The position numbers were made by a program, and so were the translations under genes. From an uncultured Syntrophomonadaceae bacterium (lineage in GTDB: Bacteria > Bacillota > Dethiobacteria > DTU022), in contig CAYMDO010000008.1 of the NCBI GenBank assembly GCA_964389365.1, forward strand, positions 5,231 to 69,230: a stretch of DNA of 64,000 bases. Direction: 5' to 3'. The notes beneath the pieces were generated by a model that was given only the letters and a program-made list of their open reading frames with translations, did not search any database and was not told where the DNA came from. Positions 50,054 to 62,641 of this stretch are shown in pieces (position 1 is the stretch's first letter; each line of letters starts with the position of its first letter).

Positions 50054-50740
50054 TTATCTCCCGGGGTCTGGTGGCCACCCCCGGCCGGGGCTGCCTTCAG
50101 GCTGGGCCCGCTGCAGGATAGCAATCACCTCGTCGTCGCCGACCTGCTCAAAATTCCTGTAGAACTGGCCGACAGCGGCAAAATCAACCGGCGCTTCGAG
50201 ATAAACAAGGGCGCTGACCTCTTTCTTCAGGCGGGCAAAGGTTTCAGGCGGGCCAACCGGAACAGCGAGAGCCAGCTCAGCCGGCCCCTGCTGCCTGATG
50301 GAGCCAAGCGCAGCCAGCATGGTATATCCGGTAGCCACGCCGTCATCGACTACGACAACCAGGCGCCCTTCAACTTGCGGCAGCTTCTTTTCACCGCGGT
50401 AGAGCTGCAGGCGGCGGGCAATTTCGGTTTGCTCTTTGGCTGCCTCTTTTTTTACATAGTCGGGGAAAACCCCCAGCCGGGAAATCAGTTCATCGTTAAG
50501 CATTACCACCCCGTTACTGCCGGTAGCGCCGATGGCCAGTTCGCTCCGGTGGGGGGCCCCAATCTTCCGGGTTATGATCAGGTCAAGTTCGCCGCCCAGC
50601 TTGTTGTGAATCTGTTCAGCCACAACAACCCCGCCGCGGGGCACGGCCAGGACCAGCGGGTCACGCCCCTTGTATATTTCAAGTCTTTCTGCAAGCATCT
50701 CTCCGGCTTCACGGCGATCTTTAAATAACATATGCATCAT
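50054..50740 (-). CDS. phosphoribosyltransferase-family protein (predicted)
   Basis: FKDRREAGEMLAERL..LVLAVPRGGVVVA..LVVVVDDGVATGYT is a PRT fold. Substrate unknown. Confidence 0.8.
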   Translation of the reverse strand: MMHMLFKDRREAGEMLAERLEIYKGRDPLVLAVPRGGVVVAEQIHNKLGGELDLIITRKIGAPHRSELAIGATGSNGVVMLNDELISRLGVFPDYVKKEAAKEQTEIARRLQLYRGEKKLPQVEGRLVVVVDDGVATGYTMLAALGSIRQQGPAELALAVPVGPPETFARLKKEVSALVYLEAPVDFAAVGQFYRNFEQVGDDEVIAILQRAQPEGSPGRGWPPDPGR

Positions 50741-50778
50741 CTCCCGTTTTTACTCAGGTTTAAGGTTATTAGCCCGGT

Positions 50779-51534
50779 TTACAGCCCCAGGCCCTTAAAA
50801 AGCCTATGGGCGGCCAAAACTGCCGGTGAATCCGCCGGCAGGCCGAAGAGGGCCTTTGCGTTAAGATCGTATTCGGCAACGCCGGAATCATAAGGTATTT
50901 CACCGTATAACTCCAACCCCGTGCTTTCCACCTCCCGGCCCAGCTGTTCGGTATCGCCCTCGCGGCTGCGGCCGATCACCAGTCCCATTCGGGAGACGGA
51001 TATCTGCACGTTGTCAACAATCTCTTTTACCCTGCCGGCGGAGCGAACACCGCGGGCTGAAGAGTCGCTGGTAACCAACAGCAGGTCAAGCATCGGCAGC
51101 AAGCGGCGGCTCAGGTGCTCAAGACCGGCTTCATTATCGATAACCATGTAATCATAACTTTTGCTTAGTTTTTCGAGGTACCCCTTAAGCAGGTCATTGG
51201 GGTAACAGTAGCAGCCCGGCCCCTGGGGGTTCCCCATCACCAGCAGATCAAAAGCGTCCTCTTCCACCATTGCCCGCATCAGACGCGATTCGATAAATAT
51301 ATCTTTTGTCATACCTGTGGGCACTGCGTTTGGCTTCTTGGTTTCTTCAATAATAGTACCGATCGTATCATGGACAGTAACGCCCAAAGCCTCGTTTAAG
51401 TTGGCGTTGGCGTCGGCATCAACAGCCAGGATGCTTTTGCCCGGGTTACTTTCGATCAGGTAGCGGATCAGCAAGGCTGAAAGAGTTGTTTTTCCGGTAC
51501 CGCCTTTGCCTGCAACTGCTATACGTTTGGTCAT
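50779..51534 (-). CDS. CooC/AcsF-like MinD-family P-loop NTPase (metal-centre maturation ATPase type)
   Basis: MTKRIAVAGKGGTGKTT deviant Walker A, ..AVDADANANL.., ..GCYCYPN.. (a CxC metal-binding-like motif, as in CooC). Confidence 0.75.
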   Translation of the reverse strand: MTKRIAVAGKGGTGKTTLSALLIRYLIESNPGKSILAVDADANANLNEALGVTVHDTIGTIIEETKKPNAVPTGMTKDIFIESRLMRAMVEEDAFDLLVMGNPQGPGCYCYPNDLLKGYLEKLSKSYDYMVIDNEAGLEHLSRRLLPMLDLLLVTSDSSARGVRSAGRVKEIVDNVQISVSRMGLVIGRSREGDTEQLGREVESTGLELYGEIPYDSGVAEYDLNAKALFGLPADSPAVLAAHRLFKGLGL

Positions 51535-51592
51535 CTACGGTTTGTCCCCTTTCAATTACTGCACCTGTCCATCAGTTTCCTGGCAAAACCGG

Positions 51593-52921
51593 CTAGAGCC
51601 TGCCGGCCAGAACCTCTTCCAGCTGGGCGATTGTGCTGCATGGCCACATTTCAGCCAACTCCGATACCATGACAACGGAGCGGTAGTCGGCCCAGCGATC
51701 AGGCGGCAGCGGGTTGAGCCAGATTACCCGCCTGACGCGCTCTTTAATTTTAGCCAGTTCTTTTATCGATTGATCTAGCGCTACAGTTTTCGTATCGCTG
51801 ACTATGATCAGCGTGGTTTTCATATTGACCCGGTCGGGGTAATCAGTCATCAACCTGCCGAGAGCCCGGCTGATATCAGTTCCCCCGCCCCAGTTGCCGC
51901 TGCGCCGGATCACCCTGTCCAGCAGGTTGTTTAAGACTATCTTACCCTTAATCCCGGCATCTAGGTTTTCAAGGTTATCAGAAAAGCTGAAGCAGGAAAG
52001 ATCCCTGACTGCCTCGTGCAGGCCGTAAAGAAAATGGATAACAAAAGAGCTGTAGCTTTTCATTGACGCCGATACATCACAGAGCAATAAAATCTGCTCC
52101 CTGGTGCGCCGTTTCGGCCTGCGCCTGATCTTAAAAAGAAGCCCGCCGTACTGCATGTTGTCGCGAATCGAACGACGGAAGTCCAACGGCCCGCTGCGCG
52201 GGCCGCAGCGGCGGCGGCGCAGGATTTTTACAGCCAGCTTCCTGGACAGTCTTTGCATAAGAAGTTCAGCTGCCGGCAGGTCTGAGGCCGCTATGGCGGC
52301 AATATCTATTTCGCGCAGGTAATCACCGGCATCCCCGACGCTGCCGGTGCCATCAGCCGCGCCGGAGAATTCTGCGCGGTTGTGTTTTTCAGCATCGCGG
52401 TTGCGGCAGTAGCGCAAATGGCTTTTTACTACCGTTTCCAAAACCGGTTTAAAGCGCTGCTCGACATTTTTGCCGTTTTCAGTTTTCTGCATAAACTCTT
52501 TCAGCTGACTGCGCTGATCGGCAGAAAGGGAGCTGTACTGCTGCAGTTCCTCGAGGCTCAGCTGCAGTGCCTCGCCCTTGAACCGCAAATCCCGGTTGGC
52601 TTCTTCCAACCGTCTCTTAAACTCATACTCCCGGCGGCCGAGCTCTTCTTTGCGCAATAACTGCTCTTCAGGAGTCAGGAAAAATTGATCAAAAACCCTG
52701 GTAAATACTGCCTGGTCGCGCCTGCTTTTCACCATTGCAGCCTGCAGGGTTGACTTAAACTGCGCCCGCGATGCGAGGTCAATCAGCTCAAGCGCCTTCA
52801 AGGCATCGATCACTTCAGCCGTGCCCACGGGCAGGCCCTCATTGCGAAGCAGGCCGGTAAAAATGGTTAGATTCATCTCAAAGCGGCCAGGCCCCTGTTT
52901 GCCTGTCAGCTGCAGCTGCAC
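51593..52921 (-). CDS. VWA domain protein, CoxE-like
   Basis: The C-terminal VWA has a MIDAS motif (LLLCDVSASM), ..WGGGTDI.., ..IIVSDTK.., ..VIWLNPLPPDRW.., which I recall as the CoxE-type pattern. The start is uncertain (52921 or ATG 52876). Confidence 0.8.
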   Translation of the reverse strand: MQLQLTGKQGPGRFEMNLTIFTGLLRNEGLPVGTAEVIDALKALELIDLASRAQFKSTLQAAMVKSRRDQAVFTRVFDQFFLTPEEQLLRKEELGRREYEFKRRLEEANRDLRFKGEALQLSLEELQQYSSLSADQRSQLKEFMQKTENGKNVEQRFKPVLETVVKSHLRYCRNRDAEKHNRAEFSGAADGTGSVGDAGDYLREIDIAAIAASDLPAAELLMQRLSRKLAVKILRRRRCGPRSGPLDFRRSIRDNMQYGGLLFKIRRRPKRRTREQILLLCDVSASMKSYSSFVIHFLYGLHEAVRDLSCFSFSDNLENLDAGIKGKIVLNNLLDRVIRRSGNWGGGTDISRALGRLMTDYPDRVNMKTTLIIVSDTKTVALDQSIKELAKIKERVRRVIWLNPLPPDRWADYRSVVMVSELAEMWPCSTIAQLEEVLAGRL

Positions 52922-53832
52922 GCTTCACCGCCACACTTCTTGTCGATTATAGCCTGCTCAATCCCCTCAGGACCGATCTGGACGGCAAACAGCTGTTGGT
53001 CAGCCCTGGTTTTAAGCAGCAAATTGAGGGTATCGGTAACGACCTTGCCGTCCAGGTGGCTGCGGTCCAGCGCCTGCAGGGCTCTGGTCCAGTCCAGGGT
53101 CTCGGCAATCGAAGGCTTTTTACGCAGGTCCGGCAGACGGCGCAGCCTGGCAACCACCCGGGCGATCTCCCAGGCCAGGCGGTCGGCGATTCCCGGCACC
53201 CTGGCTTTGATAATCTCCACCTCTTTTTCAACCGCGGGGAAATCGAGGTATAAATATAGGCAGCGGCGCTTAAGCCCGTCTGAGAGCTCGCGCTCATTAT
53301 TGCTGGTTAAAACCACTACCGGTATGTTCCTGGCCGGTATCGTGCCCAGCTCCGGAATTGAAACCTGAAAATCGGAGAGCACTTCAAAAAGAAAAGCTTC
53401 AAATTCGGGATCGCACTTGTCAACTTCATCGATCAGCAGCACAGCCTGCCTGTCGGCACGGATTGCCCGCAGGAGCGGACGCTCCAGCAGATAGCGGTCG
53501 GAGAAGAGGTCCTCTTCACGGATTTCCGCCTCTTCCAGGTTGCGGTTCATCTGGATCTTAAGCAGCTGGCGCTGGTAGTTCCACTCGTAGAGCGCTTTTG
53601 TTTCATCCAGACCTTCGTAGCACTGCAGACGGATTAGTTCAGAACCGATGGCCCGGGCCAGCACTTTGCCCATTTCCGTTTTGCCCACTCCCGGCGCCCC
53701 TTCAATCAGCAGCGGTTTCTTCAGTTCCAGGGCTAGAAAGACCGTAAGCACGGTTTGCTCTTCACAGATATAGCCGGCCTCTTTAAAACTGTTCCTTAGT
53801 TCACCCAGGGATAAACCCATAAATGCCATCAT
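52906..53832 (-). CDS. MoxR-class AAA+ ATPase, CoxD-like
   Basis: LLIEGAPGVGKT Walker A, VLLIDEVDK Walker B, about 308 aa. Paired with the downstream VWA gene. Confidence 0.85.
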   Translation of the reverse strand: MMAFMGLSLGELRNSFKEAGYICEEQTVLTVFLALELKKPLLIEGAPGVGKTEMGKVLARAIGSELIRLQCYEGLDETKALYEWNYQRQLLKIQMNRNLEEAEIREEDLFSDRYLLERPLLRAIRADRQAVLLIDEVDKCDPEFEAFLFEVLSDFQVSIPELGTIPARNIPVVVLTSNNERELSDGLKRRCLYLYLDFPAVEKEVEIIKARVPGIADRLAWEIARVVARLRRLPDLRKKPSIAETLDWTRALQALDRSHLDGKVVTDTLNLLLKTRADQQLFAVQIGPEGIEQAIIDKKCGGEACSCS

Positions 53833-54000
53833 TCCTTCTAGTTGTTTTTCAATTAAAAATGTCTCTTACAATGCCGTTTTAATGATACTACAAAGCAGGG
53901 AGGCGGGCAAACAATAAACGCGGGTACTGCCGATATATTTATTGCAATATGATAAAATACAATCGTTCCTGAAGCAATTCCAAAAATGGGAGGTTCTATC

Positions 54001-54876
54001 GTGAAATATAGCGGTCAGTCGGAAACCGGCAGGATTGAAGCAATTTTGATGAAAAAACCGGAGGCGGCCTGGATCAGCCAGCAGAATACTGACAGCCAGT
54101 GGCGGCAGCTTAATTATCCGTCAGCCCCCGATTATGAAAAAGCACTCGACGAATACAGCCGGTTTGCCGCAATTATCGAAAACCATGTCGGGGAGGTGCA
54201 CTACCTGCCCGAAGACGGCAGTGTCGGCCTCGATTCAATCTACACCCACGACCCGGTGATTATAACCCAAAAAGGGGCCATCCTCTGCAGCATGGGCAAA
54301 AAAGAGCGTGTACCGGAACCGCAGGCCGCCGCACGATATCTGCAGGGCATTGGTATGCCGGTAATCGGAGAAATTAAAGCCCCCGGCAGAGTCGAGGGCG
54401 GCGATATCGTCTGGTTTGACGATGATACAGTTGCGGTCGGGATTGGCTACCGCACCAACCGCGAAGGGATTGCCCAGCTGCGGAAGCTGACAGAAGGCCT
54501 AGTCAGGGAAGTTATAGAGGTGCCGCTGCCGCACGGTAACGGGCCTGCTGAGTGCCTGCACCTGATGTCGATGATCAGCCCGATAGACCGCGACCTGGCC
54601 GTGGTCTATTCACCGCTGATGGTGGTACCGTTCCGCGAGCTGCTGATTGAAAAGGGAATCAGGTTTGTCGAGGTGCCGGCTGAAGAATACGACACATTCG
54701 GCTGCAACGTGCTGGCGCTGGCCCCGCGCAAATGCGTGATCATCGCCGGCAACCCGAAGACCAAAGCCGGCCTGGAAGAAGCCGGAGCCACCGTGTACGA
54801 ATACCCGGGCGAGGATGTTTCAATCAAGGGGGGCGGCGGCCCGACCTGCCTCACCCGCCCGCTGCTGCGCACCTGA
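54001..54876 (+). CDS. amidinotransferase-superfamily hydrolase (dimethylarginine dimethylaminohydrolase / arginine deiminase-like)
   Basis: GGGAGG lies 7 nt before GTG 54001. ..DSIYTHDP.., ..GGDIVWFDD.. and C-terminal ..IKGGGGPTCLTRPL (catalytic Cys motif of the guanidino-modifying fold). The size (~291 aa) fits DDAH better than ADI. Confidence 0.7.
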   Translation: MKYSGQSETGRIEAILMKKPEAAWISQQNTDSQWRQLNYPSAPDYEKALDEYSRFAAIIENHVGEVHYLPEDGSVGLDSIYTHDPVIITQKGAILCSMGKKERVPEPQAAARYLQGIGMPVIGEIKAPGRVEGGDIVWFDDDTVAVGIGYRTNREGIAQLRKLTEGLVREVIEVPLPHGNGPAECLHLMSMISPIDRDLAVVYSPLMVVPFRELLIEKGIRFVEVPAEEYDTFGCNVLALAPRKCVIIAGNPKTKAGLEEAGATVYEYPGEDVSIKGGGGPTCLTRPLLRT

Positions 54877-55023
54877 AATTTGACACAGGACAGTTGAAGC
54901 CGATGCCAGCCGGTGCTAAAGATCCGAGTATGCCCTGACCAGCTTCCCCCGGCTTCCAACCTTTTGCCTCTATATATCGAGTCCCCCACCTGCCGGCAGG
55001 CGTGATTTTTATCACCACTACTA

Positions 55024-56493
55024 TTACCTTATGCCCAGTTCTTCCTCCCTGGCAGCAATAACCGCCAGCAGTTCTTCGTGCACCCCGCCCGGCAGGGGAT
55101 CGGGCCGGTGAGTCTCCAGGATCTCCCGTGCCTTCTCATCACATACGGCAGCAAGATCCTTTGCGCCCTTTTCGTTCCAAAACTGCCGCATCCGCCGGTC
55201 GATATATAGCGGGCTGGACAGTTTGCGCATATGATGATAAGTATGATCCTCGGCTAAAAAGTGGCCACGCGCGCCTACGCTTTTGATCACGTCAACAGCC
55301 AGGGTATCATCGGTAACAGGGATCCCCTCCAGCACCTTCCTGGTCATGGCAATAATCTCGTTATCCATGACCAGCTGGCCGAAACTCATCGTCAGGCCCA
55401 TCTCAAGCATCCCCCCGCCGTAAATCATATTGGCACCTGCCAGGGCCGGCAACAGGGTGGTGAGTGTCTTTTCATGGCCCGACTGAGCATCGGATAGTTT
55501 CGAATCGCCCTACGTGCCCGCCACATAGCTGGGCAGCAGGTACATCTGGGCCAGCTTGGCTACAGCCGCGCTGATCAAGCCAAGCTCCGGGCAGCCAACT
55601 GTTGCCGTGGTCTGTTTCAGGTCGATCATCGAAGTCGAACTGCCGTACATTACCGGGGCTCCTTTCCTGGTTAACTGGGCGAGCACAATGCCGCCGAGTA
55701 CCTCCGCATTGTGGGTAACCAGCGTCCCGGCCAGCGTGACCGGCGAGGTGGCGCCTGCAAGTGCCATCGAGAGTATGTTCTGGGGCAGGTTGGCCCGGGC
55801 ATATTCGATGATCGGGTCGGCGCAGCCTTCCGAAATGGTTAAAGGGCTCTGTGGGCAGGTGCAGCCGGAGACAATCGGCCGCTCTTTTAACTGTTCACGC
55901 CCCCCCGCCACCGCTGCCGCCATTTCGATCAGCAGCTGTGCCGAGCGCTTATCATGACAGGGCTGGGGCACATGCTTGGTTGTATTCGACACCGTAACCT
56001 CGTAGTTGTGCAGGCTTTCCATCTCGGGGTGCACGTCGCGGGGGGCAACAGTATTTTCAAGCATGTCGTACTGGTCGAGGGCATCGACCAGGCGGGCCAC
56101 ATCGCCCTTATCCTTCTTGGTCGATTTGCGGTATTCTCCGCTGTACGGATCGATAACCATCACCCCTTCGCCGAAGGGGCAGAAATTGACGCGGCCGCTC
56201 TCCAGCACAATATCGTGCTTCGGGTCGCGCCCGGCAAGAAAGACCTTTTTCGGGGCGCTGCCGATCGCTTCCTCCACAATATGGGCCGGTATTTTAACGA
56301 TCCGGCTGTCCCGATCCACATTGCAACCCCCGCCCTCGTAAATATCTATGGCGTTGTTGCTCTGGACAAAAAGCCCGGTATATTCCAGCACCTCCAGCGT
56401 AGCGTCATGGATCATCTCTAAATCCGAATCGGAAAACAGGCTGAGGCTGCAGCCCAAAAAAGAGCTTCTGCCGGCTATCCGGTTTCTTTTCAT
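55024..56493 (-). CDS. mttB: trimethylamine:corrinoid methyltransferase with in-frame UAG (predicted pyrrolysine)
   Basis: ORFs 55510..56493 and 55024..55452 are in the same frame. The only stop between them is TAG at 55510-55512: ..[48 protein letters not shown]... The joined length is 489 codons with the UAG at codon 328. From memory, Methanosarcina MttB is ~495 aa with Pyl at ~334. Confidence 0.88.
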
Positions 56494-56517: not shown

Positions 56518-57909
56518 TTATTTTAAGCCGGTCTTCGCTTTAAACCGTTCCACCGAATTGATGCTGATTCCCAGGATCCCTGCAATCCTGATCTTGGCCT
56601 CAATGCCTTTTGCCGCCCCGGGTTCGGGCATCGGGTAGCCGATATCGAGGGACTGCCTCAGTTCGCGCATCACCGAGCAATCACCCAGGTCAAACGGCGT
56701 TACCCCCAATTTGGCGGCAACATAATCTTTTGCCCGGTCGATCTTCAGGCCGCGGGCCAGCTGCATCCTCAACACCAGATCTCCGGCAGTGCGGATACCG
56801 CCCATCCCGACAGCAACTTCCTGTGTAGCCTCGTTGCCGAAAGGATCACCGGAGCCCACCTATAAACCGTCGGCCTTGCCAATCTCGACCAGCGACTTTG
56901 CCGCCCGCGATACAGCATCGACCGGCGGCACCGGCGACAAAGGCGTTGCCCCCACGCCCATGCCTACATTGGCATGGACCGGGATAGAAGCCGCTTCAGC
57001 ACAAGCTTTGACAAAGGTGACCGCCCGTGCCAGGTTCCAGGGAAAAGTCTTATTGCTGTTGGTATTGATCACCGGCCCGAAAATGCTGACCCCGGCTTTC
57101 GCAGCCAGCTCGGCCTGCCGGTGGGGATAGAGCCCGGCCAAACGCTGCCCATCAAACTCAAGTTTACCGTGCATGCCAAGAATAAATTCGCCTGCCATAC
57201 CCATCTCGATCCCCAGGCCGGGGTACTTTTGTTTAATTTCCCTCGCTGCCAGCAGCGCGGCCAGGATATCGGCATCGCCTGAAGCGCCGCAGGTGTCGAG
57301 GTTAATGCCGTCGGCGCCGGCAGCATACATACCCCCGGCTATATAGACTATATCCCTGACAGCCAACTCGACAGCTTTTTCCTGCGCCTCCCGCGCCTCC
57401 ATAATTTTACCAAGCGGCAACAGCTCCGACCAGTTCTCGACCGGGCCGTCAGGTTTGGTGTAGAGGCCCAGGTTGGGCATCGCCCCGTAAAGAACCGGCA
57501 TAATCGAGTTCACCTGCACATTTTCCATTACCTTGGCTTCATCGTGCAGGATTGCTTTCACCGATTTAAAACTGTAGTCTATGTTGCCCAGGTCAAGCGA
57601 GTCGGCCGCGAGCACCTTTTCATGGACCTGGATCGCCGTGGCCCGGTCAAGCGAAATATTAGCCTGGTAGTTAATCTTGAAAGCCCCTGAATCAGAAGAG
57701 GTAACAATCTCTTTCCCCCTGACCACACTGGCCACATTAACCGGTGAAGTAACTATCTCAAACAGGTAATCGAGCTCATCGGCATTAAGCTCCGGGATCT
57801 TTCCCCGGTCGGCCGCATCGCGAGTGCCGCTTTCAAGCTCATCCTTAATCTCTGCAGCGCTTAAGCGCACCGCTGATCCGTCGCCCATGCGGGTTAAAAA
57901 TGATTCCAA
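56518..57909 (-). CDS. mtbB: dimethylamine:corrinoid methyltransferase with in-frame UAG (predicted pyrrolysine)
   Basis: ORFs 56860..57963 and 56518..56859 abut in the same frame across TAG 56860-56862: ..EIGKADGL-TAG-(V)GSGDPFGNEATQ... The likely start is TTG 57909, 8 nt after AGAGGTG, giving MESFLTRMGDGS... The joined product is 463 codons with the UAG at codon ~350. From memory, archaeal MtbB is ~467 aa with Pyl at ~356. Confidence 0.88.
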
Positions 57910-58136
57910 AACAGCAACACCTCTTTCAGCTATCATGCCCAGACGGCAGCTAAAGTAAACCACTCTAATAATTCATGATCAACTGCCGTTCTCCTCTAAC
58001 AAAAAAAGATCGGCAGGATGATGTTCAGGCCGGCAAAAGAGGTGGCTGCGGGAAATCCACCCCGGGCAGGGTAATCCTGAGTTTGCAGGAACCTGCCTTG
58101 GGCAATAATAACTTGATAACCTTACAGACAGAGTTT

Positions 58137-58163
58137 TATACGTTCTATACGTTCTATACGTTC
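58137..58163. repeat. three perfect tandem copies of a 9-bp unit (tatacgttc) upstream of mtbB
   Basis: tatacgttc tatacgttc tatacgttc, about 230 nt upstream of the mtbB start, in the only sizeable non-coding stretch before the operon. Confidence 0.85.
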
Positions 58164-58251
58164 TGCTTCAGATTACAAAGAAAGCAGTTACAATGACTAT
58201 ATACAACCGCGTAAAGGCCAGATAACGGATACAGAATTTGCTTTAAGTCTG

Positions 58252-58515
58252 ATGAGCAGAAAGCAGTTTGCAGAATACCACAATGAGGGTGGCGACGAGA
58301 AGTGCTTGGATATACGGGATGTGAAGAGGGTCGGTGACAGCAAGGCTCAGGCTATACTTCAGGCTGTCAGCCAATGTGGTGATGCATCCGAGTTTCAGGG
58401 ATTGCCGCGTGAGAAGAGGGACCGGTATTTGGTTCACTTGAAAGAGAAGGGGTTATCTGTGAGCCAGATCGAAAGATTGACAGGTGTAAACAGGGGAGTT
58501 GTACGGAAGGCATAA
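58252..58515 (+). pseudogene. orphan C-terminal fragment of a transposase-like protein (HTH tail)
   Basis: 87 aa. ..AQAILQAVSQCGDASEFQGLPREKRDRYLVHLKEKGLSVSQIERLTGVNRGVVRKA resembles, from memory, the C-terminal tail of IS200-like/REP-associated Y1 transposase-like proteins of Firmicutes. No catalytic domain is present. Confidence 0.35.
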
Positions 58516-58534
58516 TCGTGTTGTCAAACCCCCG

Positions 58535-58564
58535 TCCCCCCGGCACGCTTCCCCCCGGCACGCT
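58535..58564. repeat. perfect tandem duplication of a 15-bp unit (tccccccggcacgct)
   Basis: Copies at 58535-58549 and 58550-58564, directly downstream of the transposase-like fragment. Confidence 0.85.
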
Positions 58565-58689
58565 ATTATTCATGCCCTCTTCATCGCATTATTTAATTCA
58601 TTCTTAAAAGTTTGCCATAAGAAAGGATTCTGACAACTTGCCAGCGAATTGATTAGCTGTTTATACAATCAGTAGGAGGAGGATTTGAG

Positions 58690-60147
58690 ATGATTGGCAC
58701 AATTGATTTGGTTGTTTTTCTGGTTTATTTTTTAGCTGTCATCATTATTGGTTTTGTCACCTACGGCAAGGTCAAAGGGGGCTCTGATTACGCCCTCGCC
58801 GGGCGCTCCCTAGGCTGGCCGGTTACGATCGGCACCCTGGTGGCCACGATGATCGGTTCATCAGCTGCCATGGGCAAAGCAGGAACTGCCTTCGAATATG
58901 GCATCGGTATCATGTGGTCTCCGATTGCCATCTTCATTGGCTACATAGTGTTCAGTATTTTCATTGCCCATAAACTACGCCGGGCCAAAGCCTGGACAGT
59001 GCCTGATGTCCTCGAAAGACGGTTTGGCAGGGGCGTAAGAAGGCTGTCGGCAATAGTACTAGTTCTAGCTGTAATATCTATTTTTGGCGCCCAGCTGATC
59101 GCTATGGGTATTGTATTTCAACTGGCCGGCGAACCAATGGGCATAAACTACCAGCTTGCGATTTTGATTGCCGGCTTTATTTTGGTTCTCTACACAACTT
59201 TAGGAGGTCTCTATGCTGTTGCATTTACCGATTTGCTCCAGTTCGGGATCATGATTCCGGTTATTGCCATCGTTCTACCAATCCTGGTTTTCGGCAGCAG
59301 CGATATCAGTTTTGCCAACCTGACCAATCAACTGGAACCAAGGATGTTCAACCTCTTCACCGGGGTCCCCTTTACCCTGATCCTCGGCCTGCTTTTTACG
59401 TACATTCCGGGTGTAATTATCGATCAATCGATCTGGCAGAGAGTTATGTCCGCCAAAAATGTGCAGGTAGCCCGCTGGAGCCCGGTGATCAGCGGCGCTA
59501 TCTATTTTTACTTTAGCATTATTGTTGTCTTGATTGGCATGGTCGGTGCGATCCTTTACCCCAATATTGTCGCTGAACAAGGAAATGCCGACGGTATTCT
59601 CCCAATGATGATCGCCCACTTCCTCCCCAAAGGAGTTACCGGTTTAGGCCTGACTGCACTTTTTGCCGTTGCCATGTCTACAGCCAGCACCTGTCTTTTG
59701 GTTGCCGCTGTTATCGTTGCCAAAGACCTAGTCCCGGCTTTCTCAAAGAAAACATACACTGAAGGCGACGAGCTTCGCATTTCAAGAATCGCATCCGGAG
59801 TAATCGGTATTGCCGGGATTATCTTTGCCCTCACCTTCAGCGGCATATTCTGGATCATGCTGATTGCCTATGGTATTTTCGTCTCCGCTCTCTTCTTCCC
59901 GGTAATCGCCGCCCTCTTCTGGAAGAAAGCAACGAAAAAAGCGGCCATCATCAGTATAATTGCCAGCACTATTGTAATGGTAGTCTTCCTGGTTATTCCG
60001 ACTAACCTGGAGGCAGTTATACCGGCCGGGATTACAAGTTTTGTTTTAATGGTTGGAATCAGCCTGGCCACTTACCATAAGGAAGATCTAACCCCGCCTG
60101 TATTAAGTGACGAAGAACTGCAAAAGGCAAACAACGAAGCAACGTAG
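58690..60147 (+). CDS. sodium:solute symporter (SSS) family transporter
   Basis: 485 aa, about 12-13 TM segments, SSS-like N-terminus (..GGSDYALAGRSLGWPV..). AGGAGGAGG precedes the ATG. Confidence 0.85.
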   Translation: MIGTIDLVVFLVYFLAVIIIGFVTYGKVKGGSDYALAGRSLGWPVTIGTLVATMIGSSAAMGKAGTAFEYGIGIMWSPIAIFIGYIVFSIFIAHKLRRAKAWTVPDVLERRFGRGVRRLSAIVLVLAVISIFGAQLIAMGIVFQLAGEPMGINYQLAILIAGFILVLYTTLGGLYAVAFTDLLQFGIMIPVIAIVLPILVFGSSDISFANLTNQLEPRMFNLFTGVPFTLILGLLFTYIPGVIIDQSIWQRVMSAKNVQVARWSPVISGAIYFYFSIIVVLIGMVGAILYPNIVAEQGNADGILPMMIAHFLPKGVTGLGLTALFAVAMSTASTCLLVAAVIVAKDLVPAFSKKTYTEGDELRISRIASGVIGIAGIIFALTFSGIFWIMLIAYGIFVSALFFPVIAALFWKKATKKAAIISIIASTIVMVVFLVIPTNLEAVIPAGITSFVLMVGISLATYHKEDLTPPVLSDEELQKANNEAT

Positions 60148-60161
60148 GAGGTGATTTAATC

Positions 60162-61022
60162 GTGATTATCGATTTTGGCCTAACACCACCGCATCCGGCA
60201 TTTATGGAGCTGTACCGCAATCCACCCAAGTATCTCGAAGGCTATAAGAATCTCTATGTGTCTCAACTCGATGACCTCTTTGAGCATATTGACAAGCCGG
60301 TGGATGATTTCATCGGTTACCTGGATACAGTCGGGGTAACCAAGGCGGTTGTCAAAGCAAAAGATATTGAAACAACTTACCAGCGCAAGGTGAAAAATGA
60401 AGTTGTGGCCGGACTTGTTCAGGCCTACCCGGATCGGTTTGTCGGTTTTGCCGGCGTAGATCCATATAAAGGGATGGATGCTGTCCGGGAACTTGAATAT
60501 GCAGTGCGTGATCTTGGTCTGCGCGGCCTGGCCATGGAACCGTTTGAATACCACTTGCCGGCCAATGATCGCCGCTATTATCCCCTCTACAGCAAGTGTG
60601 TGGAACTGAACATCCCGGTAAACCTGCATTGCTCCATTAACTTCTCAACCATGTCGCGTATGGATCATGGCCGACCAATCTATTTAGACGATGTTGCCGT
60701 CGACTTTCCGGAGCTGAAAATTGTAGCGATGACATCGGGCTGGCCCTGGGTGAGCGAACTAATCGGTGTAGCCTGGCGCCACCCCAATGTTTATATTGAA
60801 ATAGCCGCCGTCCGACCGCGCTATTTTGCCATGCCAAACACCGGCTGGGGTGAACTGATGCATTACGGTAATACTGTCATTCAGGATAAAATACTTTATG
60901 CTTCCTCGTGGCCACTTCTGCCAATTGAACGAACAATCCAGGAAATCAGGGAACTGCCCTTAAAGGAAGCAGTTGTTGAAAAATGGCTCTATGGAAACGC
61001 AGCCCGGTTGCTCGAACTGTAA
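60162..61022 (+). CDS. amidohydrolase-2 (ACMSD-like TIM-barrel metallo-hydrolase/decarboxylase) family protein
   Basis: 286 aa. GGAGGTG precedes GTG 60162. Its size and the ..NLHCS.., ..YASSWPL.. pattern suggest the amidohydrolase_2 fold. The assignment is tentative. Confidence 0.6.
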   Translation: MIIDFGLTPPHPAFMELYRNPPKYLEGYKNLYVSQLDDLFEHIDKPVDDFIGYLDTVGVTKAVVKAKDIETTYQRKVKNEVVAGLVQAYPDRFVGFAGVDPYKGMDAVRELEYAVRDLGLRGLAMEPFEYHLPANDRRYYPLYSKCVELNIPVNLHCSINFSTMSRMDHGRPIYLDDVAVDFPELKIVAMTSGWPWVSELIGVAWRHPNVYIEIAAVRPRYFAMPNTGWGELMHYGNTVIQDKILYASSWPLLPIERTIQEIRELPLKEAVVEKWLYGNAARLLEL

Positions 61023-61036
61023 AGGAGAGATACAAC

Positions 61037-62641
61037 ATGAACGATGACAGCATCTACGATTGGACAACAGCGCAGAATTTAAGGCTCCTTCTCGAGCAGG
61101 CAGTCGCCAAATACCCGGATAAAGAGCTGCTGACCATTGAGGACGAGGGCACCTACAGCTTTACCAAATTCAAAGAAGAGGTTGACCGCGTCGCCGATGT
61201 TTTGACCGGCTCAGGTATAAAAAAAGGAGACCTGGTTGGGGTAATGCTGCCCAATACCCTGCTCTTCCCGGTAACCACTTATGCCTGCTTCTCCTTCGGC
61301 GCCGTGATGATTCCGATCAATATCACCTACCGCTCTGAAGACGCACGCTATGTGCTGAACTACACCGAACTGGCCACCCTGGTCACCACAGACCAGCTAT
61401 ACCGCGATACTATCGCTCCGATTAGGGAAGGTTGTCCTCACCTGAAACAGGTGCTGGTTACCGGAGATGCTGGCCGGAACGACCCGACAGTTCTTAACCT
61501 TAAAAACCTAGTCAAGGATGAACCTCCTGCACCACCGGCACTTGAGATCAAGGCAACAGATCTGGCCACCATCCTCTTCACCTCCGGCACAACCGGGTAC
61601 CCGAAAGGGTGCATGCATGATCAAACCTACTGGCTCTACCTGGCCAAAAAAGTAGTTAACTACGCCGGGTTAACCGATCAAGACATTCTCCTCACCGCGC
61701 AACCCTTCTATTACATGGATCCGCAGTGGAACCTGGTGGCCTGCTTTATGTCCGGGGCAAAACTGATTATGATGAAAAGGTTTAGCCCCACCCGCTTCTG
61801 GGAACACCTGATCAATTACAAGGTAACCTGGTGCAATGCGATCATGGCCAACTTACTGCACCAAACCATGCCTCCCAATATTAAGGAAAAGCACAGCCTG
61901 CGCCTGATGGCCTGCACCATCATTCCGACAACGCTTCATCAGGATCTTGAAGAAAAAACCGGCGTTGTCTGGCGGGCAAATTTTGGGATGACGGAAACCG
62001 GTTGCGACCTGATGGTGCCAATTGAAGCAGAACATCTTGTCGGCAGCGGTTGTATCGGCAGGGCCGTCTGGGGCCGTGAAGTACGAGTTGTTGATGAAAA
62101 AGATCGAGATGTTGAACCCGGTCAGGTCGGAGAAATGCTGCTGCGGGGAAAAGGCATCATGCAGGGCTACTATAAGAACCAGGAAGCAACTGATGAAGCT
62201 TTTCGCGGCGGCTGGTTCCATACAGGTGACCTGGTGACCATGGATCAAGACGGCTGGGTCTACTTTAAAGGGCGCAAAAAAGATATGGTCAGGCGCAGCG
62301 GTGAGAATATCTCAACTCTTGAAGTTGAAAACATCTTAGTTTCGCACCCGAAAGTTAAGGATACCGCAGTGCTGGCCGTGCCCGATGATGTCCGAGGCGA
62401 AGAAGTTAAAGCTTATATCATCCCGGCTAATGGTGAATCGGTTGAAACAATCCCACCACAGGAAATAGCTGAATACTGTGCTGAGCGCCTGGCACCGTTT
62501 AAAGTGCCCCGCTATTATGAGTACGTTGATGACATGCCCAGAACTTCTGCTTCAGAAAAAGTGGAAAAATATAAACTGAAAGAACAAAAAGAGGATTTAC
62601 GTTTAGGCAGTTATGACCGGGTCGATAAAGTCTGGCGTTGA
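61037..62641 (+). CDS. AMP-dependent synthetase/ligase (acyl- or aryl-CoA ligase)
   Basis: ILFTSGTTGYPKGCMH (AMP-binding motif I), ..WFHTGDL.., ..GRKKDMVRRSGENIS... AAGGAGA precedes ATG 61037. Confidence 0.88.
   Translation: MNDDSIYDWTTAQNLRLLLEQAVAKYPDKELLTIEDEGTYSFTKFKEEVDRVADVLTGSGIKKGDLVGVMLPNTLLFPVTTYACFSFGAVMIPINITYRSEDARYVLNYTELATLVTTDQLYRDTIAPIREGCPHLKQVLVTGDAGRNDPTVLNLKNLVKDEPPAPPALEIKATDLATILFTSGTTGYPKGCMHDQTYWLYLAKKVVNYAGLTDQDILLTAQPFYYMDPQWNLVACFMSGAKLIMMKRFSPTRFWEHLINYKVTWCNAIMANLLHQTMPPNIKEKHSLRLMACTIIPTTLHQDLEEKTGVVWRANFGMTETGCDLMVPIEAEHLVGSGCIGRAVWGREVRVVDEKDRDVEPGQVGEMLLRGKGIMQGYYKNQEATDEAFRGGWFHTGDLVTMDQDGWVYFKGRKKDMVRRSGENISTLEVENILVSHPKVKDTAVLAVPDDVRGEEVKAYIIPANGESVETIPPQEIAEYCAERLAPFKVPRYYEYVDDMPRTSASEKVEKYKLKEQKEDLRLGSYDRVDKVWR

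Follow-up and report, generated by a model that had tools for sequence, protein, structure and literature searches.

In an uncultured Syntrophomonadaceae bacterium, the gene of a small guanidino-modifying hydrolase lies tail to tail with genes of pyrrolysine-containing methylamine methyltransferases, which raises the question whether both belong to one pathway. For the window analyzed here, a DNA stretch of 64,000 nucleotides, the initial annotation had suggested from adjacency that methylarginine or a related compound is hydrolyzed to dimethylamine (DMA), which then feeds the dimethylamine methyltransferase MtbB. Our comparative analysis indicates that the gene probably encodes a soluble pentein hydrolase of a clade of about 291 aa acting on an arginine-type substrate, and that the locus probably displays an inherited gene order and no dedicated methylarginine-to-DMA pathway.

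The hydrolase gene is real and intact (Table 1) and is present as a single copy in the source genome, a 2.04-Mb MAG that is 98% complete. The closest named relatives of this genome are Syntrophomonadaceae MAGs, two of which bear isolate names (CSSed165cm and B1Sed10) that suggest sediment samples. On the forward strand, the frame is open from either ATG 53986 or GTG 54001 through 54876. GTG 54001 is the likely start because of the GGGAGG box upstream of it and the length of most relatives, 291-292 aa, whereas ATG 53986 overlaps this box; position and length of the gene had therefore probably been called correctly from the beginning.

Table 1. Features of the hydrolase locus (window coordinates).
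Feature	Position	Strand	Remarks
DDAH-like pentein cysteine hydrolase gene, 291 aa	54001-54876	+	Based on ORF, Pfam, alignment and structure model
Shine-Dalgarno sequence GGGAGG	53988-53993	+	7 nt before GTG 54001; favors the 291-aa start over ATG 53986
Spacer between the convergent hydrolase and mttB stop codons, 147 nt	54877-55023		Site of a metallo-beta-lactamase (MBL)-fold gene in sister genomes
mttB, trimethylamine:corrinoid methyltransferase	55024-56493	-	In-frame TAG (pyrrolysine) at 55510-55512, codon 328; convergent with the hydrolase gene
mtbB, dimethylamine:corrinoid methyltransferase	56518-57963	-	In-frame TAG at 56860-56862, codon 368; upstream of mttB, same strand
Divergent block of 4 genes	50054-53832	-	With MetK and RecD2, conserved backbone beside the hydrolase across the bacterial family
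MadB-like AAA ATPase	52906-53832	-	Divergent block; 274 bits vs. a 475-bit cut-off
CoxE-type VWA protein	51593-52921	-	Divergent block
CbiA/MinD-like ATPase	50779-51534	-	Divergent block
Phosphoribosyltransferase	50054-50740	-	Divergent block

The convergent dimethylamine methyltransferase gene described in the initial annotation is indeed there, but the immediate tail-to-tail partner of the hydrolase gene is mttB, with mtbB located one gene beyond. A terminator scan yielded three sites, all inside the hydrolase ORF on the opposite strand, and no terminator-like hairpin within the spacer of 147 nt. Upstream of mtbB, the window (57964-62641) revealed no corrinoid-protein gene. This region carries an 87-aa ORF without a family match (58252-58515) and beyond it, on the forward strand, genes of a sodium:solute symporter, an Amidohydro_2 protein and an AMP-binding ligase. 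The divergent block, with metK and recD2 downstream of it, is reminiscent of a MoxR/CoxD-CoxE-type maturation module; its AAA and VWA genes are lost in one related genus (g35), and a literature search on MadB/MadC did not explain the NCBIfam names of these two genes.

Domain and structure comparisons identified the product as a pentein. It passes the gathering score of Pfam ADI (PF02274) with 85.3 bits against a cut-off of 22.8 bits and also exceeds the cut-off of DDAH_eukar with 36 bits. The AlphaFold (AF2) model (pLDDT 84.8) showed Pseudomonas aeruginosa dimethylarginine dimethylaminohydrolase (DDAH; PaDDAH, PDB 1h70) as the top Foldseek match, with an E value of 1.9e-19 and a TM score of 0.85 on the target, followed by arginine deiminase (ADI), NnhA, DDAH1 and the N-terminal domain of ArgZ, all top matches being penteins. 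PaDDAH is likewise the best solved relative by sequence (E 2e-14 in the single-sequence search, 89 bits with a profile of 37 sequences), while in the profile search ADI reached 64 bits in two pieces, mammalian DDAH1 reached 55 bits in the N-terminal half only, and ArgZ was marginal. The C-terminus GGGGPTCLTRPL comprises residues 277-288, and its Cys283 aligns with the catalytic Cys249 of PaDDAH. In the HMMER alignment, His187 and Glu132 correspond to His162 and Glu114 and complete the triad, and the predicted anchors Asp78, Asp84, Arg103 and Arg151 correspond to Asp60, Asp66, Arg85 and Arg132. All of these residues are invariant across 37 relatives. In the DDAH structures (PaDDAH, DDAH1), these positions form the catalytic triad and hold the substrate by its alpha-amino group, guanidino N-H and alpha-carboxylate, which makes an L-arginine-type compound in free form the likely substrate. 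Judged from the model, the protein has the alpha/beta propeller fold of penteins, with a C-terminal nucleophilic cysteine and a His-acid pair. The first description of the product as a DDAH-sized, pentein-fold enzyme with a guanidino-type nucleophile motif was thus confirmed, PaDDAH being the nearest solved structure.

The residues around these anchors are less conventional. The guanidino-binding Asp is preceded by His83, where PaDDAH has Glu65 and ADI, as we read its motif, presumably an Arg. Two residues past the catalytic His, at a position that is nearly invariant within the clade, lies Met189 (His187-Leu-Met189), where DDAH has Lys and ADI has Asp. In ADI, the aspartate of this His-x-Asp motif is the second Asp that binds the leaving NH2/guanidinium. 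By sequence comparison, Met189 argues against plain ADI chemistry and fits a substituted, hydrophobic leaving group. A PHxNGP..CLH segment ahead of the catalytic His is specific for the clade, while the N-terminal SExG..L motif and the C-terminal tail are closer to ADI than to DDAH.

These ADI-like features bear on another reading, which we regard as possible but tentative, namely that the enzyme is a short arginine deiminase or dihydrolase converting plain L-arginine to citrulline and NH3, or further on to ornithine, in nitrogen scavenging or pH homeostasis and unrelated to methylamines. The Pfam ADI model outscores the DDAH model, and the hhalign alignment to the genome's own ADI spans 282 columns, including the SExG..L and GGGP.C...P motifs, where a PaDDAH-type protein does not align; furthermore, AdiC/ArcD-like antiporters are the commonest neighbors in other phyla. 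On the other hand, the second guanidinium-binding Asp is replaced by the nearly invariant Met, the helical insertion of ADI is absent, the ArgZ profile match is weak, the NCBIfam arginine dihydrolase models (Arg_dihydro) gave no match at E 0.001 or better, and the source genome already encodes a canonical ADI of 408 aa (L002 1135-2361).

Curated family models do not claim the protein either. The bacterial DDAH equivalogs (EC 3.5.3.18) were missed by a wide margin, with 57 of the 450 bits of the cut-off for NF045658, 90 of 340 for NF045660 and 23 of 300 for NF045659, and so were the ADI (EC 3.5.3.6) models TIGR01078 (75 of 489 bits) and NF002381 (83 of 414 bits), both matched in two separate stretches. 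In a maximum-likelihood tree, the window protein nests deep in the 291-aa family, which a long branch of 2.4 changes per column (SH-aLRT 99) splits from the PaDDAH type; a long branch also separates the family from the 408-aa ADI of the same genome. This tree was a quick IQ-TREE run with eight Bacillales PaDDAH-type proteins and one ADI as outgroups. Of the clades proposed for a phylogenetic check, it covered the PaDDAH type and ADI, and the hydrolase is distant from both.

Taken by its sequence, the window hydrolase appears to belong to a large clade of proteins of about 291 aa that stands apart from curated DDAHs and ADIs. More than 8000 word-sharing candidates (at 90% clustering) were found, and 212 clusters at 50% identity reached an E value of 1e-30 or better. 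Identity within the clade is about 50% or more across many phyla, most of them not known to encode pyrrolysine. Annotations of its members vary between arginine deiminase, DDAH and amidinotransferase, and a full-text literature search on DDAH, guanidino-modifying and DDAH-like enzymes found no characterized member. Fusions among the 50% representatives, with HAD, GNAT and HhH domains, gave no consistent functional hint.

Comparison with sister genomes provided further insight into how the hydrolase gene came to lie beside mttB. The invariant backbone of the locus in the bacterial family (f1) consists of RecD2, MetK, phosphoribosyltransferase, CbiA and, with a loss in g35, the VWA-AAA pair on one strand, with the hydrolase gene divergent from them and a 223-aa MBL-fold gene convergent with the hydrolase gene. 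Four genera (g1, g3, g7 and g35) and two metagenome contigs also carry an mtbB-mttB pair here, located upstream of the MBL gene and encoded on its strand. At least eight related loci have no such pair at this place but retain the hydrolase gene and, usually, the MBL gene (G015, G009, G084, G052, G049 and contigs of P0015, P0030 and P0056). In all sister loci carrying the pair, the MBL gene separates the hydrolase gene from mttB (e.g., L015 2880-3554, L014 7078-7749 and L017 10788-11459, as compared with 54877-55023 of the window), and the window is the only locus without it. Alignment of the window spacer with the sister genomes holds until the hydrolase gene ends, resumes where mttB ends and shows nothing between these points. 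No close copy of the MBL gene was detected elsewhere in the source genome, only a 35%-identical paralogue (G000:C4). From these comparisons, the MBL-fold gene has been cleanly deleted in the source genome, and the direct tail-to-tail contact, given that the gene is missing from the window only and that the spacer matches cleanly, is a derived deletion. In a tree built from four concatenated locus proteins, the loci with the pair are scattered, which fits a presumably old arrangement in which mtbB-mttB was lost repeatedly while the hydrolase gene stayed. A recent insertion of mtbB-mttB in two genera was also considered; the class-wide search and the locus tree led us to reject it in favor of the older arrangement with repeated loss.

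The distribution of the genes was then compared over 149 genomes of the class. The hydrolase was found in 42 and mtbB in 29 of them; 20 genomes carry the two together, 22 carry only the hydrolase and 9 only mtbB. The two genes occur mainly in the family f1, within which their overlap is modestly above chance (20 observed, about 15 expected); since the genomes are related, this is weak evidence of coupling. Hydrolase and mtbB seem to be gained and lost independently. The proposed conservation of the adjacency proved to reach no further than four genera within a single family, the MBL gene always lying in between in the sister loci, and the suggested step from methylarginine via DMA to MtbB is left unsupported by these counts and by the wide distribution of the clade, with other gene contexts, in phyla not known to encode pyrrolysine. 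A methylarginine-to-DMA pathway fails as an inference from this locus because the synteny is restricted to a family, the convergent genes are normally split by an unrelated gene, and gain and loss are independent. The position of the hydrolase gene beside mttB-mtbB looks like a gene order inherited within one bacterial family, and not like a shared pathway, as far as sequence comparison can tell.

It is accordingly improbable, in our view, that the neighbors form a functional unit in which a true methylarginine hydrolase converts ADMA or MMA to citrulline and DMA or MMA, and the DMA is demethylated by MtbB. Such a unit would be in line with a DDAH as the nearest solved structure, with the missing ADI-type Asp after the catalytic His, and with the persistence of the hydrolase/MBL/mttB-mtbB arrangement in the four genera; the source genome has a PylS gene and three mtbB copies (two of them on the further contigs C13 and C24), so that any DMA released would find a consumer, and marinimicrobial relatives of the hydrolase adjoin genes of GcvT-like and amine-oxidase proteins. 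However, hydrolase and mttB-mtbB are convergent and not co-transcribed, the MBL gene intervenes in every sister genome, and the hydrolase is kept where the pair is lost. The Glu/Lys pair of DDAHs is replaced by His83/Met189, the DDAH cut-offs are far away, and for monomethylamine no MtmB gene was found in the 98%-complete genome. Elsewhere in the genome, beyond the window, a 448-aa APC-family permease frame contains one in-frame TAG (G000:C28:17592-18884, + strand); it may represent a broken gene, a pair of genes or a case of TAG read-through.

Gene contexts in other phyla are different. The commonest neighbor is a basic amino acid/polyamine antiporter (AdiC/ArcD/PotE-like). Its gene immediately precedes the clade gene, in the same orientation, in 32 of 74 loci, in phyla including Bacteroidota, Acidobacteriota, Gemmatimonadota, Chloroflexota, Marinimicrobia, Zixibacteria and Desulfobacterota, and in Bacillales. 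An ArgE/DapE deacylase adjoins the hydrolase in 10 of the 74 loci, and Lys/Arg/Orn-type ABC transporters follow it in Desulfobacteraceae and Caldilineaceae. These neighbors support the view that the enzyme may process a basic amino acid taken up from outside.

Two lineages showed more elaborate arrangements. In Scopulibacillus and Fictibacillus, a gene for a 253-aa PaDDAH-type protein (343-358 bits, cut-off 450) directly precedes the clade gene, and an amino-acid permease gene follows. The two pentein genes share one operon (L024 6647-8295 and L035 7216-8876), 11-20 nt apart on the same strand, and in Scopulibacillus an IclR regulator and an M20 peptidase were seen upstream of them. The Marinimicrobia-type loci (n = 8, being one lineage and hence one event: L047 5407-13235, L044, L050, L058, L061, L066, L071 and L100) display a co-directional cluster that comprises, in the fullest cases, genes of an antiporter, an M20 deacylase, the hydrolase, a GcvT-like aminomethyltransferase and two FAD amine oxidases. 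The best match of the GcvT-like protein is the C-terminal half of TMAO demethylase, below the cut-off, and the FAD amine oxidases are CrtI/CrtO-like. This cluster might serve the breakdown of a methylated guanidino amino acid, and both contexts give a hint of methylated substrates.

They also lead to two wider alternatives. It is unlikely, though slightly less so than a methylarginine-MtbB unit, that the substrate is another guanidino or ureido amino acid (N-acyl-arginine, homoarginine or citrulline), handled as a step in a wider salvage of basic amino acids. The adjoining ArgE/DapE-type deacylases and the GNAT and HAD fusions would suit such a step, and the Bacillales operon, with the clade gene after a PaDDAH-type enzyme, suggests a different, possibly sequential reaction; but the invariant anchors for a free alpha-amino group and alpha-carboxylate argue against N-alpha-acylated substrates at this step, and the window holds no such partner genes. 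With small probability, comparable to that of the MtbB unit, the whole clade may represent a second, unrecognized type of methylarginine hydrolase (for ADMA, MMA or SDMA, for example) whose methylamine would be harvested by lineage-specific C1 systems. In the Syntrophomonadaceae-like family, this would be the pyrrolysine-dependent MtbB/MttB, and in Marinimicrobia the GcvT-like aminomethyltransferase together with the FAD amine oxidases; in Bacillales, the enzyme would work alongside a classical DDAH.

In the explanation that we prefer, a pentein hydrolase in an inherited gene order, Asp78 would hold the alpha-amino group of a free L-arginine-type amino acid, Arg103 and Arg151 its alpha-carboxylate, and Asp84 the guanidino N-H. 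Cys283, helped by the His187-Glu132 pair, would attack the guanidino carbon and expel ammonia or a small (methyl)amine, and the resulting thiouronium intermediate would be hydrolyzed to a citrulline-type product. The gene would be transcribed on its own, its surroundings inherited in one Syntrophomonadaceae-like family, with mttB brought into direct contact only through the deletion of the MBL-fold gene. Substrate and product are those that we infer from the sequence. Whether the leaving group is ammonia (from arginine) or a methylamine (from methylarginine) is about evenly balanced. As the hydrolase seems to differ from plain ADIs and from curated DDAHs alike, methylamine release is conceivable, and methylarginine is a plausible substrate in view of the missing ADI aspartate, the separate canonical ADI of the genome, and the Bacillales and Marinimicrobia contexts.

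The window gene is thus another copy of a very common pentein hydrolase clade, and the methylarginine-to-DMA route has no comparative-genomic backing; if methylarginine were the substrate, MtbB would of course have access to any DMA set free. The wider value lies in the family itself, which occurs in many phyla and is often coupled to a basic-amino-acid antiporter. The function of one member would fix thousands of annotations and bears on the question whether a second bacterial route leads from arginine derivatives to ammonia or methylamines. Cultured carriers of a clade gene include Fictibacillus gelatini DSM 15865 and Scopulibacillus cellulosilyticus.

Among known systems, the window hydrolase shares with PaDDAH (PDB 1h70, 3rhy and 3bpb) a single pentein domain without the ADI insertion, the Cys-His-Glu triad and the Asp60/Asp66/Arg85/Arg132 anchors. 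It is, however, only 24-25% identical to PaDDAH and about 37 residues longer, possesses an extra N-terminal segment and the PHxNGP..CLH insert, and has His83 and Met189 in place of Glu65 and Lys164; in Bacillales, both types occur side by side. With ADI (ArcA; PDB 1rxx, 2a9g and 4bof), it has in common the superfamily, covalent cysteine chemistry, the N- and C-terminal motifs, the EGGD motif and the match to the Pfam ADI model. In contrast to ADI, it lacks the helical insertion of about 100 residues (291 versus 408 aa) and the His-x-Asp aspartate, which the genome's own ADI retains as His-Leu-Asp, and in the window it is not accompanied by arcB, arcC or arcD. The N-terminal domain of ArgZ/AgrE (PDB 6juy, 6jv0 and 6lrf) is a pentein domain of similar size and a structural match (Foldseek E about 1e-14), whereas the profile match of the window hydrolase to it is marginal, with E values of 0.002-0.04.
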